Of a stretch of DNA of 56,663 nt, positions 22,899 to 40,626 are shown piece by piece. The notes beneath the pieces were generated by a model that saw only the letters and a program-made list of their open reading frames with translations, was not told the DNA's origin and made no database searches. Location of the stretch: NCBI GenBank assembly GCA_964450505.1, contig CAYVEN010000001.1, positions 1 to 56,663 of the forward strand. Reading direction: 5' to 3'. The position numbers and the translations under genes were made by a program. This stretch comes from an uncultured Dehalococcoidia bacterium. Lineage in GTDB: Bacteria; Chloroflexota; Dehalococcoidia; Lucifugimonadales; QGNO01. Within the stretch, counting starts at the first letter, position 1. Every line of letters starts with the position of its first letter.

Positions 22899-23294
22899 CT
22901 ACCGCTTGCTGTATTGCTGGGCTTTCCTGGCGCGTTTCAATCCGTACTTCTTGCTCTCTTTGATCCTGGCGTCGCGGGTGAGGAGGCCGTGCTCTCGCAA
23001 GGGCTTCCTGAAGCTTTCGTCCAAGACCACCAGCGCCCTGGCGATGCCGTGTCCGATGGCCCAGGCCTGGCTGCTGGGGCCGCCGCCCTTGACCTTGACC
23101 TGCGCGGTGTACTTCCCTTCAGTATTGGTAACTTCCAGGGGTCGAACTGCCATCTCTTGCCATGGCCTCCAAGGGATCACTTCCTCTATGGGCTTGCCGT
23201 TGATGACTATCCCCCCCGGCTGTATATAGAGGCGCACCTGGGCAATGGCCGTCTTGCGCTTGCCCACACCGTGATAGTAGGTTTCCTGGGTCAT
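22899..23294 (-). CDS. rpsI: 30S ribosomal protein uS9
   Basis: 131 aa. Contains YHGVGKRKTAIA... and ends with the typical RKAQQYSKR. Confidence 0.95.
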   Translation of the reverse strand: MTQETYYHGVGKRKTAIAQVRLYIQPGGIVINGKPIEEVIPWRPWQEMAVRPLEVTNTEGKYTAQVKVKGGGPSSQAWAIGHGIARALVVLDESFRKPLREHGLLTRDARIKESKKYGLKRARKAQQYSKR

Positions 23295-23864
23295 TTACTC
23301 CTCCGATTCCCCCTCGGCGATGGTTTCGGTCGCTGCGTTTTCCGGGTCCCCGTTGAGACCCTCCGATCCGTGGGCCATAGCGGACGCTTCTTCTGTCGAC
23401 ACCTCGGCAGCTAGAAGGGCTTGCCTTCTTTCCGTGGCGGTGACCTGTGCTTGGTGGGGATGCTCATCTCCGGCGTACACCTTCATTCTGCGGAGCATGT
23501 GCCGACCAAGGGTGTTCTTGGGCAGCATACCTTTCACGGCGTGCTGGATGGCCCTTTCTGGATGCCTGTCCAGAAGTCGTTGAAGGTTGGTGGTGCGCAG
23601 TCCGCTGGGATAGCCGGAGTGACGGTAGTACATCTTTTGCTCCAGCTTCTTGCCGGTAACAGCCACTCTGGATGCGTTGAGAACTATGACGTAGTCTCCG
23701 GTAAGAACGTTGGGCGTATAGATTGGCTTGTGCTTGCCCTGCAAGACGCGCGCTATCTCGCTGGCCAGTCTGCCAAGCGGCTTGCCGGCAGCATCCACAA
23801 CCTTCCATTCAGAGGTTATATCCGCCTGTCTTGCTGTATGTGTCCTGTTGTGTTTAGTAGCCAT
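23295..23864 (-). CDS. rplM: 50S ribosomal protein uL13, with an acidic C-terminal extension
   Basis: 189 aa. The core [25 protein letters not shown] is followed by about 45 extra residues (...[36 protein letters not shown]). The stop abuts the rpsI start. Confidence 0.93.
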
Positions 23865-24636
23865 TGGGTAGAAAGTCCTTGTAGTTAACTTGCAGCAGGC
23901 AAAGACCCTGCGGAGGCATTGTCCTGGCCAGACCTAAGCTCCAGGGGTTGGTGCCGCCCTGCAGCGTGGCGGGGACGGTCTCCGGGGAAGCGCGACCGTT
24001 GCCTATAGCCACCAGCAGCCCGGCAATACGGCGCATCTGGTGGGGAAGAAAGGCGTTGGCCTCCACTTGAAACCTCACCGTATCCTCATCGCGGTCTACG
24101 GCACCGGCCATGATGCGCCTCACGGTGCTCTTTCCCGGTGGCACCGGGCCGCTGAGAGGAGCAAAGTCGTGCTCTCCTATCATTCCATCTAGGGCGAGTT
24201 GCATAGCGTCCTCATCCAGCGATTCCGCCACGCGGGCGGAGTAGCGCTCCCGCAAGGGCGAGGGCGATCCGCTGTTGAGAATGGAATATCCGTAGACTCT
24301 GCTGACTGCGTGTCGCCGCGGATCAAAGGATACGTCTACATAGCAGGCTTTCTTCACCGCAATATCGCTGGGAAGAAAGTGATTCAGGCCGCTGAGCAAA
24401 CTGTCCGGAGATAGATTGGAACGGGTGAGGAACGCCACGGCTTGACCCTTGGCGTGTACACCAACGTCGGTGCGGCCCGCAGCCTTGATGCGGACTTTCT
24501 CCAAGGTCAGCTTGTGAATGGCGGACTCTATCTCGCTCTGGACGGTGGGAACGCTGGGTTGATATTGAAAGCCGCGGTAAGAGGTACCGTCGTATTCAAC
24601 GATGAGGGCGGCTTTGCGAGGGTGCGAACTCTGCAT
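23854..24636 (-). CDS. truA: tRNA pseudouridine(38-40) synthase
   Basis: 260 aa with YDGT.Y.GFQ.Q and the catalytic-Asp motif [11 protein letters not shown]. Confidence 0.9.
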
Positions 24637-24638
24637 AC

Positions 24639-38459: not shown

Positions 38460-38744
38460 CTACGCTCCCTCGAATATCTCGATCCTATCGCCGGGTTTAA
38501 GGGTCACAATCGCTTTCTTGCGGTCTCGCGTTTGCGTCCAGCGGGGGCCAAAGCGCTTCCTCTTGCCTCTGTTCTTCACAATGTTCACCTGGAGCACATC
38601 CACGTTGTAGGCCCGCTTCACCGCCTCTTTTACCATTATCTTATTGGCTCTGGGCGTAATCTCGAACACGTACTTGTTACGCTCCTGGAGCACAGTGCTT
38701 TTCTCAGTGACTATGGGACGCAGCAGAATGTTGAGCTGTTCCAT
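38460..38744 (-). CDS. rplW: 50S ribosomal protein uL23
   Basis: 94 aa containing ...RPIVTEKS......N.YVF.V...A.K..VK.AV... Confidence 0.93.
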   Translation of the reverse strand: MEQLNILLRPIVTEKSTVLQERNKYVFEITPRANKIMVKEAVKRAYNVDVLQVNIVKNRGKRKRFGPRWTQTRDRKKAIVTLKPGDRIEIFEGA

Positions 38745-38746
38745 GG

Positions 38747-39706
38747 CTACGCCTCCTTACGCCCTTCTTCTTCAGGCTCCGCCGGCGTTTCCGGCTCCAC
38801 TTCCACCGCCGCTGCCGACTCCACTTCTACCGGAGCTTCCGGCTCCACTTCCACTGCTGCTTCCGACTCCGCTTCTGCCGGAGCCTCCAACTCTACTTCC
38901 ACCGTTGCTTCCGGCTCTACTTCCGTCGCTACATCCACCAGCGTTTCCGACTCCGGTGTCGCTGTTTCTTCCTGATCTGCACTTGCCTTGGTTCGACGGC
39001 TCCTGCCACCACGGGTAGTGGTGGACGAAGCACGTCGGCGCGTCCTAGTCTTTGGTTCCATCTCCACTTCCGCGGAGGTTACGCCGCCCGCCCACAGCTC
39101 TTCCGCCCGGTGGACGGCATCTACCGTCATGATGAGGCTGTCATATTCCAGCAAGTCTAGGACATTGATGTTGGAAGCAGGGAGCGTTTTTACCTTCTTG
39201 ATGTTGCGGGCGGAGAGCACTAAGTTGCTGCTGGGTGGATGCGTGACTATCAGGGTGCTGGAGGCTGCGTCCAGTGCCTTCAGAACGTTCACCATCTCCT
39301 TGGTCCGGGAAGTGGGCAGATCCATGTTCTGAAGAAGAGTCAGCCTGCTGTCTCTAGCCTTGTCCGAGAGCAGGCAACGAATGGCGAGCCTGCGCATCTT
39401 CTTGGGCATGCTCTGGCGAAAACTCCGCGGGCTGGGGCCGAACACAATGCCTCCACCTGCGTATTGGGGAGAACGTATGCTGCCCTGCCTGGCACGTCCG
39501 CTATGCTTCTGAGGCCTGGGCTTGGCTCCTCCGCCCGATACCTGGGCCCGCGTCTTTGTGGAGGACGTGCCCTGCCTGGCATTGGCAAGCTGGCGCACCA
39601 TGGCCTGGTGCACCACCGGCTGGTTGGCTGGAACACCAAACAAACTATCGCTGACTTCCAACGTTCCAACCTGGGTACCCGTTATGTCCATTACGGGAAG
39701 CTTCAC
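38747..39706 (-). CDS. rplD: 50S ribosomal protein uL4, with a roughly 110-aa C-terminal extension (basic patch, then acidic repeats)
   Basis: 319 aa. The core runs to about aa 208 (Q..R...A..RQGT..TK.R..V.GGG.KP..QK..GRAR.GS.RSPQ..GGG..FGP.PR). It is followed by ...TRTRRRASSTTTRGGRSRRTKA... and then EAPAEAESEAAVEVEP / EAPVEVESAAAVEVEP repeats. Confidence 0.9.
   Translation of the reverse strand: MKLPVMDITGTQVGTLEVSDSLFGVPANQPVVHQAMVRQLANARQGTSSTKTRAQVSGGGAKPRPQKHSGRARQGSIRSPQYAGGGIVFGPSPRSFRQSMPKKMRRLAIRCLLSDKARDSRLTLLQNMDLPTSRTKEMVNVLKALDAASSTLIVTHPPSSNLVLSARNIKKVKTLPASNINVLDLLEYDSLIMTVDAVHRAEELWAGGVTSAEVEMEPKTRTRRRASSTTTRGGRSRRTKASADQEETATPESETLVDVATEVEPEATVEVELEAPAEAESEAAVEVEPEAPVEVESAAAVEVEPETPAEPEEEGRKEA
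38789..38935 (-). repeat. About three tandem 48-nt units inside the uL4 tail
   Basis: The plus strand reads ttccggctccacttccaccgccgctgccgactccacttctaccggagc / ttccggctccacttccactgctgcttccgactccgcttctgccggagc, followed by a degenerate third copy. The repeats are in frame. Confidence 0.8.
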
Positions 39707-40626
39707 TGTCCCTTCCCTTCCTTTTCTTCTTCGCTTGGCTTAGGAGCCTCTTCTTGAGATGAAGCAACTTCAGCCACTTCCTCTTCCGCAGTTTCTGCCT
39801 CCGGTGTCGATTCAGAGGCCTCTTCCTGAGTAGATGCTTGGGGTGCCTCCACTTCCTGCTGCTGTACTGGCTGCTCAGCGACCGGATCTTGCTCTTCCAC
39901 AGCGGCCTCTGCCTGCTCTTCGACTTCTACAACGGTGTCCTGATCTTCCGTAAGGTACGCCTTTTCAACGGGCGTGCTCCAGATAGGGTTCTGCTTAAGC
40001 CGTTGGACGCCTTCAGTGGTGTGTTGAATGAGCACGAGTTGCCGGTTGGCGCCTGGCACGCTTCCTTTGATAAGCAAAAGATTGCGTTCGACATCCACCT
40101 GGACAACCTCCACGTTCTGCGCGGTGACGCGGACGGCGCCCATGTGTCCGGCCATGCGTTTACCCTTGAGCACCCGGCCCGGCGTGGTGCCTGCGCCAAT
40201 GGAGCCCGGAGCGCGATGCCTATCGGACTGTCCGTGAGTCTTGGGCCCGCCGCTAAAGCCATGCCGTTTGATGCCTCCGGCAAAGCCACGGCCCTTGGTG
40301 GTGCCAGTCACATTTATGACGTCGCCGGGCTGGAATATAGAAACGTCCACGGTTTGACCTACCTGAACGTAGCTCAGGTCCGCAGGCGGCAACTCCCTTA
40401 GATAGCGGAAGCTCCCTATCCCTCTCAGGTGTCCCTCTTCAGCCTTGTTCAGCCGGCGCTTCTCTCCGAAGCTGAGTTGCACCGCTTCATAGCCGTCTTT
40501 GGCCATGGTCTTGACCTGGGTCACCATGCAGGGGCCAGCCTCCAATACCGTCACCGCCTGGGCCGTGCCGTCCTCTTGGAAGACCTGGGTCATGCCTAAT
40601 TTTTCGCCGAGTAAACCTATTGGCAT
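39703..40626 (-). CDS. rplC: 50S ribosomal protein uL3, with a roughly 100-aa acidic C-terminal extension
   Basis: 307 aa opening GLLG.K.GMTQ.F...G....VTV.EAGPC.V.Q.KT, with F.GG.K.HG....PK.HG.SDRHR.PGSIG. The tail is rich in E, Q, A, V and P (...VVEVEEQAEAAVEEQDPVAEQPVQQQEVEAP...EEEKEGKGQ). The stop overlaps the rplD start. Confidence 0.9.
   Translation of the reverse strand: MPIGLLGEKLGMTQVFQEDGTAQAVTVLEAGPCMVTQVKTMAKDGYEAVQLSFGEKRRLNKAEEGHLRGIGSFRYLRELPPADLSYVQVGQTVDVSIFQPGDVINVTGTTKGRGFAGGIKRHGFSGGPKTHGQSDRHRAPGSIGAGTTPGRVLKGKRMAGHMGAVRVTAQNVEVVQVDVERNLLLIKGSVPGANRQLVLIQHTTEGVQRLKQNPIWSTPVEKAYLTEDQDTVVEVEEQAEAAVEEQDPVAEQPVQQQEVEAPQASTQEEASESTPEAETAEEEVAEVASSQEEAPKPSEEEKEGKGQ

Follow-up and report, generated by a model that had tools for sequence, protein, structure and literature searches.

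Six ribosomal proteins (uL3, uL4, uS3, uS17, uS5 and uL13) and the alpha subunit of RNA polymerase (RpoA) end in C-terminal low-complexity tails in the contig CAYVEN010000001.1, and the present analysis confirmed that these tails are real. The contig was analysed over 56,663 nt (hereafter the window, meaning this whole stretch of DNA), and its source is a metagenome-assembled genome (MAG) of a SAR202-type Dehalococcoidia (Chloroflexota). Open reading frames (ORFs) and Pfam matches define a standard fused str/S10/spc/alpha cluster on the minus strand at 22899-43098, with the gene order fusA, rpsJ, rplC, rplD, rplW, rplB, rpsS, rplV, rpsC, rplP, rpmC, rpsQ, rplN, rplX, rplE, rpsN, rpsH, rplF, rplR, rpsE, rpmD, rplO, secY, adk, map, infA, rpmJ, rpsM, rpsK, rpsD, rpoA, rplQ, truA, rplM, rpsI. 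The bL36 gene occupies the 171-nt ‘gap’ between infA and rpsM (27501-27671, minus strand), and thus the cluster is gap-free there too.

A preliminary description of this DNA had listed 213 aa for uS17, 319 for uL4, 307 for uL3, 273 for uS3, 199 for uS5, 189 for uL13, 227 for uL5 and 356 for RpoA. These lengths are exact, and its account of the tails as acidic, partly repetitive and coordinated over many ribosomal proteins and RpoA agrees with our results. The long ORFs of uL15, uL29 and uS14 are start-codon over-calls, not extensions. The features are as follows.

22899..40968, minus strand: S10-spc-alpha ribosomal protein gene cluster holding the tail-bearing genes (ORFs, Pfam), rpsJ ... rplM-rpsI, with secY, adk, map, infA, rpmJ, rpoA and truA
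39706..40002, minus strand: C-terminal acidic tail of uL3, residues 209-307 of the 307-aa protein (ORF 39703-40626)
38750..39085, minus strand: C-terminal tail of uL4, residues 208-319, a basic patch followed by an acidic tandem repeat
36169..36351, minus strand: C-terminal acidic tail of uS3, residues 213-273, containing the IEVTL motif
34910..35293, minus strand: C-terminal acidic tail of uS17, residues 86-213, with proximal segment, repeat and distal end
31424..31525, minus strand: C-terminal tail of uS5, residues 166-199 (Pfam S5_C ends at 157)
24989..25102, minus strand: acidic tail of RpoA after the alpha C-terminal domain, residues 319-356 (Pfam RNA_pol_A_CTD ends at 310)
23298..23429, minus strand: C-terminal acidic tail of uL13, residues 146-189 (Pfam ends at 136, PDB homology at 140-148)
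34078..34218, minus strand: N-terminal basic/mixed-charge low-complexity extension of uL5, residues 1-47 (Pfam L5 starts at 69)

Coding status and extent of the tails

Related loci were collected by a SecY-based scan with one genome per species, which gave 80 loci diverged down to 63% SecY identity and including records titled complete chromosomes. The per-gene survey of tails covers 52-80 of these loci, and tails were measured past the window's own core end, for which residues 85 (uS17), 207 (uL4), 208 (uL3), 212 (uS3), 165 (uS5) and 145 (uL13) were adopted. The top SecY match, L001 (DAOUJH010000010.1, ‘Dehalococcoidia bacterium S32_256’), has a SecY identity of 100% and is a close relative with a non-identical sequence, its ribosomal protein cores being 93-100% identical to those of the window; L001 served as the comparison partner for the dN/dS and indel analysis.

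The seven tails of the window comprise 516 codons without a single in-frame stop, compared with 15 and 28 stops in frames +1 and +2, and the chance of frame 0 staying open over this length is 2e-7 to 3e-13. The same holds for the 80 related loci, whose 304 tails with 20 aa or more comprise 18,795 codons and no in-frame stop, vs 450 and 1075 in the other frames; GC at codon positions 1, 2 and 3 of these tails is 0.80, 0.49 and 0.63. Nucleotide alignment of the window and L001 tails revealed 10 indels of 3-108 nt, all 10 being multiples of 3. At their core ends the tailed proteins lack a canonical stop, and the seven-protein tail set was present in all 62 Dehalococcoidia/SAR202 genomes with full data. 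Moreover, the 213-aa uS17 was assembled identically from two other runs (SRR8304785 and SRR8304786). These sequence features show that the tails are coding, and their translation is strongly supported. The preliminary description, which had taken the extended frames for genuine coding sequence and not for frameshift or assembly artefacts, was therefore right on the basis of the stop counts, the in-frame indels, the 62/62 genomes and the re-assembled uS17.

Errors of sequencing or assembly, or wrongly annotated intergenic spacers that are read through by frameshift errors, are hardly credible as the origin of the tails: the source is indeed a MAG, and one database homologue of uS17 (P0034) is visibly frameshifted within the repeat, but its tail turns into basic junk sequence and thus exemplifies how an error would look, whereas the stop counts, the strong codon periodicity, the missing stop at the core end, the in-frame indels, the identical uS17 from two other runs and the 62 independent genomes, records titled complete chromosomes among them, refute this reading.

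In uS17, the Pfam S17 domain spans residues 11-78 and homology to solved chains ends at ~82; the tail that follows has 128 aa and a net charge of -42, which takes the protein from +11 to -31. It consists of a conserved proximal segment with the motif AE[IV]xPxE[IL], for which AlphaFold2 (AF2) predicts a helix at residues 90-101, then a variable-number 8-aa/24-nt repeat of the unit EEPEPEAA or EEAEQESA (Tandem Repeats Finder, TRF: 24-nt period, 4.6 copies, 35080-35189), and finally a conserved distal end, ...EEREGKEGP. Solved uS17 chains have 76-135 aa, the longest by virtue of an N-terminal extension, and none has a comparable C-terminal tail. A tail of at least 20 aa is found in 97% of the related loci (range 14-241 aa). 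Among the 146 nearest 50%-identity representatives in a library of 1.8 billion proteins, the C-terminal tail reaches at least 50 aa in 70 and at least 100 aa in 34, and 61 of the former 70 are net acidic.

The uL3 tail (99 aa, net charge -23) takes the protein from +7 to -16; the Pfam domain ends at ~205, homology to solved chains of 204-223 aa stops at residue 199-206, and stops number 0 in the tail frame vs 1 and 6 in the two alternative frames. In 7% of the related loci, from several separate lineages, uL3 has a tail of at least 20 aa, with lengths up to 189 aa. In uL4, Pfam ends at 203 and PDB homology at 204-205 (the solved chains tabulated have 199-225 aa), and the tail (112 aa, net charge -19) runs from the basic patch KTRTRRR...RSRRTK into an acidic 16-aa/48-nt tandem repeat (TRF: 48-nt period, 3.0 copies, 38782-38923). 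At least 20 aa of tail are present on uL4 in 34% of the loci (range 4-191 aa).

The uS3 tail has 61 aa, Pfam ending at 203 and PDB homology stopping at 208-218, and a tail of at least 20 aa is found in 100% of 71 related loci (range 26-122 aa). The preliminary description had counted uS3 among the unusually long proteins; its tail is real, but the total of 273 aa falls among solved structures, whose chains have 269-275 aa. Within the otherwise variable tail, a motif (P)IEVT[LV] at residues 222-226 (window 36310-36324, minus strand) is kept clade-wide, and among 40 homologues E223 and V224 are invariant while I222, T225 and L226 are nearly so. Intramolecular docking of this motif was rejected, as AF2 gives a per-residue confidence score (pLDDT) below 50 there and does not dock it onto the monomer.

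The remaining three tails are shorter in the window: 34 aa with net charge -7 on uS5 (core end 157-165), 38 aa with -11 on RpoA (core end 310-318) and 44 aa with -9 on uL13. For uS5, 75% of the related loci have at least 20 aa (range 7-143 aa), and in other lineages these tails are often basic (median +0.10 charge per residue), which makes uS5 the exception among the tails. RpoA has at least 20 aa in 82% of 73 loci (range 12-90 aa), and all 60 such tails analysed are net acidic. For uL13 the figure is 27%, with tails up to 156 aa. In four relatives (L008, L009, L010 and L015) the end of the uL13 tail is a HeH/Rho_N (SAP-like) domain above Pfam thresholds (PF12949, 29.6 bits; PF07498, 31.7 bits), a domain that the window's uL13 lacks; the acidic tail in these four would be a linker between the 50S subunit and a putative nucleic-acid-binding module.

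In the survey, C-terminal tails are essentially lacking from the cluster's remaining 26 genes. The extension of uL5 is N-terminal and clade-wide, with an open frame and a start codon beside the uL24 stop in all related loci with data but one; in relatives it measures 10-226 aa, is basic or of mixed charge, and is rich in K/R/Q/G/A/P. A further observation concerns opposite-charge blocks, in which Arg-rich stretches (e.g. PARRRKRAT) alternate with acidic repeat blocks in uL5 of L011, uL13 of L021 and uL4 of the window (38990-39060); such alternating-charge extensions are unlike the purely acidic tails.

The tails end close to the start codon of the next gene, at distances of -4 (uL3), +2 (uL4), -23 (uS3), -4 (uS17), +9 (uS5), -4 (RpoA) and 0 nt (uL13), as the preliminary description had noted when it described frames open up to, or overlapping, the next start. 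The final ~10 codons of each tail hold the Shine–Dalgarno sequence (SD) of the downstream, translationally coupled gene, for example AAGGAAGGGAAGGGACA-GTG, GTAAGGAGGCGTAGCC-ATG and CAGGAGGAGCAGTT-GTG, the last being the SD of bL17 within the final codons of the RpoA tail. The final codons of the uL3 tail likewise hold the SD of uL4, with a GTGA overlap, and the final 23 nt of the uS3 tail overlap the start of uL16. Conserved, E/G/K-rich tail ends are thus due to the downstream SD embedded there. The idea that whole tails serve as reservoirs of SD-like sites for downstream genes was rejected, because SD-like motifs are depleted relative to synonymous-codon resampling both in the tails (z = -5.6) and in the cores (z = -4.6 to -9.8), a likeness that also speaks for the tails being coding. 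The presence of structured RNA in the DNA that encodes the tails was rejected as well, since the only Rfam matches at gathering thresholds in the whole window are a SAM riboswitch and a tRNA.

Composition, selection and length turnover

Across the clade, the tails consist of 21% E, 19% A, 10% P, 8% V and 8% D, together 66% of the residues, and almost no W, C, H, F or Y; Lys is rare, and K and R are almost lacking. Per ribosome, the six ribosomal tails of the window contribute 478 residues with a net charge of -117, attached to proteins whose cores are strongly basic (net +7 to +15). They are predicted to be intrinsically disordered: AF2 gives pLDDT >90 across most of the OB-fold core of uS17, and mostly <50 without secondary structure at residues 104-213; residues 208-273 of uS3 are below 50 too, and all window tails fall within the disordered region of the charge-hydropathy plot. 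These are the disorder and charge predictions proposed in the preliminary description.

The Ka/Ks comparison proposed there gave dN/dS values, approximate because they come from protein-guided alignments of repetitive sequence, of 0.33 in tails and 0.06 in cores between the window and L001. Each of 18 other close genome pairs gave 0.10-0.39 in tails and 0.03-0.18 in cores, and pooling over pairs with core dS < 0.8 gave 0.26 and 0.07. Among single-nucleotide exchange partners of Glu in the tails, Asp accounts for 51% and Lys for 2%, where mutation alone predicts 20% each, so that Glu-Lys exchanges are ~ten-fold depleted. Hence selection acts for negative charge or against positive charge. Taken together, these data show that selection on the tails is weak for sequence and clear for frame and charge, and that it preserves an open frame, negative charge and freedom from sticky residues rather than the sequence itself.

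Summed over the seven proteins, tail length in the 62 genomes ranges from 131 to 635 aa (median 272), the window having 516 aa. The tails lengthen and shorten by in-frame slippage of 24- and 48-nt tandem repeats: the units in uS17 (24 nt) and uL4 (48 nt) are in frame and multiples of 3, their copy number varies between close relatives, and the indels relative to L001 include 48 nt and 108 nt, the uL4 indel being 108 nt (36 codons) and in frame. Because of this slippage, tail length differs even between close relatives, as the preliminary description had proposed to check. Thus repeat copy number alone accounts for the span of 122 to 270 aa among uS17 homologues with a core identity of at least 88%, and one 90%-identity cluster from another lineage holds lengths of 185, 205, 221, 243, 272 and 301 aa. 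A phase-variable contingency locus does not describe this system, as the units and 10 of 10 indels are multiples of 3 and the frame is always kept. GC content was rejected as the driver of tail length, given its weak correlation (Spearman 0.27, p = 0.03).

Comparison between the tails of different proteins gave no matches. A mobile module common to them was thus rejected, and the tails of different proteins have separate origins.

In a strict six-frame scan of the window, dense acidic low-complexity segments were found only in uL3, uL4, uS3, uS17 and uL13, apart from one antisense hit in a frame opposite the uS5 gene that was taken as spurious. Within the window the feature is therefore specific to ribosomal proteins and not general, and decoration of the whole proteome with acidic segments was rejected at this 56-kb scale. 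With respect to habitat, many relatives' record titles carry marine names (SAR202, ALOHA), two groundwater relatives (L004 and L006) have summed tails of 145 and 160 aa, among the shortest, and the longest sums (>500 aa) belong to MAGs without a habitat in the record title.

Possible functions of the tails

The preliminary description had offered solubility, ion or polyamine binding, phase behaviour and hibernation as processes that the tails could affect. Our preferred reading, which we regard as moderately probable when taken as a whole, is that the tails form a polyanionic brush that balances charge. By analogy with published statements on uL4, S3, S5 and ribosomal low-complexity regions (PMC9534751 supplement, PMC10085706 and PMC6821194), which give the published basis for solvent exposure of such extensions, the tails probably lie on the solvent side, and would project from both ribosomal subunits as a flexible negative brush. 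Before assembly, this brush could offset the positive charge of the free ribosomal proteins and so act as a self-chaperone (for uS17, from +11 to -31); on the finished ribosome it may repel RNA, other ribosomes and polyanions from the surface and thereby favour colloidal stability. The sequences further suggest that parts of the tails may also be anchors or tethers, namely the proximal helix of uS17, the IEVTL motif of uS3 and the HeH domain on uL13 of some relatives. A function is favoured by the persistence of the uS17, uS3 and RpoA tails over deep divergence and by the conserved motifs embedded in them, and the cost of the tails argues in the same direction because ribosomal proteins are so abundant.

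Several points weigh against a polyanionic brush. The tails could be clipped from the mature ribosomal proteins, coupling alone could enforce the conservation of frame, and the conservation of charge could reflect mere avoidance of harm. The tails of uL3, uL4 and uL13 are missing from most relatives and are therefore dispensable, those of uS5 carry a basic charge in many lineages and thus make a uniformly polyanionic brush less convincing, and the length turnover is enormous. Low AF2 confidence is an indirect sign of disorder, and the dN/dS values carry the approximation noted above.

The main rival holds that slippage at tolerant C-termini yields tails which are translated but have no function, with selection only keeping the frame open to the next start (through coupling and the embedded SD) and keeping the junk harmless, i.e. 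acidic, non-hydrophobic and not RNA-binding. We consider this a serious possibility, though not the probable one. It accommodates well the extreme length turnover (14-241 aa in uS17 and 4-191 aa in uL4), tail sequences that are unconserved and without modules common to different proteins, the lack of uL3, uL4 and uL13 tails in most relatives, tail ends that also encode the SD or start codon of the gene downstream, and a dN/dS that is 4-5 times higher in tails than in cores. However, that ratio stays well under 1 in 18 of 18 pairs, conserved motifs lie within the tails, and 82-100% of genomes, down to 63% SecY identity, keep at least 20 aa of tail on uS17, uS3 and RpoA. Persistence despite the biosynthetic cost on the most abundant proteins is also difficult to reconcile with junk, an argument made in the same form in PMC6821194.

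Alternatively, the tails could be interaction platforms or tethers that recruit factors, RNA polymerase (RNAP), nucleic acid or membranes via short motifs or appended domains, as modelled on a proposal for the extensions of S2, S3 and S5 near the mRNA entry site in Mycoplasma pneumoniae. The nearly invariant IEVTL motif of uS3, the AE[IV]xPxE[IL] segment with its AF2 helix at the opening of the uS17 tail, and the HeH/Rho_N domain closing four uL13 tails (L008, L009, L010 and L015) speak for such a role, and uS3, uS5 and RpoA are all tailed here, the M. pneumoniae S3 and S5 extensions being at the RNAP contact interface (PMC9534751 supplement). Yet the bulk of the tail length is repeat without conserved motifs, overlap with SD and start codon accounts for the conserved distal ends, and AF2 leaves the uS3 motif undocked on the monomer, so that we regard this reading as unlikely.

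Salt or ion adaptation of the whole proteome, by halophile-style surface acidification or cation storage, is very improbable. It could draw on the marine record titles of many relatives, on the short tail sums of the groundwater relatives L004 (145 aa) and L006 (160 aa), and on the enrichment of acidic low-complexity regions in halophilic archaea (PMC6821194); but the ribosomal protein cores remain strongly basic (+7 to +15), ~28 non-ribosomal proteins of the window have no dense acidic segments, and the groundwater relatives are tailed too. Acidic segments confined to ribosomal proteins within 56 kb are not the pattern of a halophile-type acidified proteome.

A bolder form of the polyanionic brush, which we put forward as doubtful, is that the tails constitute a selected, length-tunable brush on both ribosome and RNA polymerase that tethers partners through IEVTL and HeH. 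If true, such a brush would be the protein counterpart of eukaryotic rRNA expansion segments, it would determine how the translation machinery behaves as a colloid or condensate, and strain-to-strain polymorphism of repeat copy number would be adaptive tuning and not noise.

Known extensions and other features of the window

The tails are an extreme case of known disordered extensions of ribosomal proteins, not a new kind of system: 34-128 aa are added past the canonical core, and the added sequence is of low complexity and predicted to be disordered. The claim of the preliminary description that this is not a standard bacterial feature does not hold, as comparable extensions are known (PMC9534751, PMC6821194 and PMC10085706). 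Ntountoumi et al. (2019, NAR; PMC6821194) counted 822 low-complexity regions in ribosomal proteins of bacteria, in which Ala, Glu and Lys predominate; these regions are mostly C-terminal and on the ribosome surface, with the function given as unknown, the carriers being S2, S16, L25, S3, S6, L3, L10, L17, L19, L21 and L31. The present tails resemble them in being A/E-rich, mostly C-terminal, probably on the surface, and attached to essential abundant proteins including uL3 and uS3. They differ in that uS17, uL4, uS5 and uL13, absent from that list, are carriers, that their composition also features Pro, Val and Asp prominently, with little Lys, that seven proteins of one cluster are affected with tails to 128 aa (241 aa in relatives), and that repeat copy number varies between close relatives.

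In M. pneumoniae, extensions occur on 11 of the 52 ribosomal proteins, at the C-terminus in 9 cases; most are predicted to be disordered, and every one is exposed to solvent and remote from active sites, the authors calling such extensions common throughout bacteria (Xue et al. 2022, Nature; PMC9534751). S3 and S5 are extended in both cases, whereas the M. pneumoniae set includes S2, S6, L22, L23 and L29; some extensions there fold into rRNA-binding helices, and acidic composition and repeat-number variation are not reported there. The closest single counterpart in protein, terminus and length is uL4 in the Cutibacterium acnes 70S ribosome, which has a solvent-exposed disordered C-terminal extension of 100 aa that is invisible in the cryo-EM map (PMC10085706), compared with 112 aa here. 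In that actinobacterium it is a single long tail instead of a coordinated set, and its uS17 has an N-terminal extension that binds h9.

Two other kinds of acidic tail were compared. A post-translational poly-Glu tail is added to bS6 by RimK, and the delta subunit of Firmicutes RNAP has an acidic C-terminal domain thought to displace nucleic acids electrostatically. The likeness lies in a flexible polyanionic tail on a component of translation or transcription, and a delta-type mechanism may be proposed for the RpoA tail. Here, however, the tails are genome-encoded, much longer and on other proteins, with no evidence of enzymatic addition or delta-like recycling; RimK-type poly-Glu tailing is thus excluded, since the tails are encoded in DNA. 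Stalk-type acidic tails, by which bL12 or P-proteins recruit translational GTPases, do not fit either, as the carriers are uL3, uL4, uL13, uS3, uS5 and uS17, no similarity exists between proteins, and the SD of the following gene accounts for the terminal residues.

A literature search for a description of the tails specific to SAR202, Dehalococcoidia or Chloroflexi found none. The preliminary description had foreseen that the novelty would be lowered if the tails were universal in the lineage and already described for it; they are universal in the 62 genomes, and no paper describing them for the lineage was found. New are the lineage, the number of proteins hit at once, uS17, uL4, uS5 and uL13 as carriers, tail lengths beyond those of solved ribosomes, the variation of repeat number between close relatives, and the measured charge-conserving selection.

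For an oligotrophic lineage, ~480 residues and ~-117 charges per ribosome amount to a real cost, and one that needs explaining. The SAR202/Dehalococcoidia are a strong natural experiment on the role of Ala/Glu-rich ribosomal tails, as the same termini are tailed in every genome examined, lengths span more than a ten-fold range, and selection on charge is measurable. In practice, length-based quality checks and marker-gene alignments of ribosomal proteins from Chloroflexota MAGs should expect tails. Since the tails are nearly without Lys and Arg, their tryptic peptides would be very long, and tryptic proteomics would miss them.

Elsewhere in the window, the preliminary description had also pointed to acidic inserts in MtnA and a ZnuA-like protein. 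MtnA has only a mildly acidic C-terminal end of ~30 aa, while the ZnuA-family lipoprotein (10620-11945, plus strand) does contain a His/Asp/Glu-rich loop of ~100 aa, which we take to be a metal-binding loop typical of the family; both are unrelated to the ribosomal tails. The lipoprotein also has a Thr/Pro-repeat linker with an 18-nt tandem repeat at 10777-10834. The SAM riboswitch (RF00162, 85 bits, 14837-14951, plus strand) lies directly upstream of a run of methionine-salvage/SAM-cycle genes, i.e. mtnA, a PNP/MTAP-like phosphorylase, AdoHcy hydrolase and MetK. For mtnA, the TTG chosen as start codon at 14938 is inside the riboswitch and is therefore probably wrong.

At the start of the window (~1-470, minus strand), a partial lipoprotein-like ORF that runs off its edge encodes a signal peptide and, after it, collagen-like G-P-X repeats, among them GPAGEQ as an 18-nt tandem repeat of 5.6 copies at 215-324. 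A circularly permuted ATP-grasp protein, an Alpha-E domain protein and a transglutaminase-like protein are encoded by three genes at 3977-7260 (plus strand), a recurrent predicted peptide-ligase/modification system for which no link to the genome-encoded Glu-rich tails was found. Two adjoining squalene/phytoene-synthase family genes followed by a flavin amine-oxidase (668-3806, plus strand) resemble the HpnC/HpnD/HpnE squalene synthesis genes. Finally, a bacterial protein encoded at 7304-7999 (minus strand) gives a full-length match to the GPP34 (Golgi phosphoprotein 3) family, with E = 3.5e-45.

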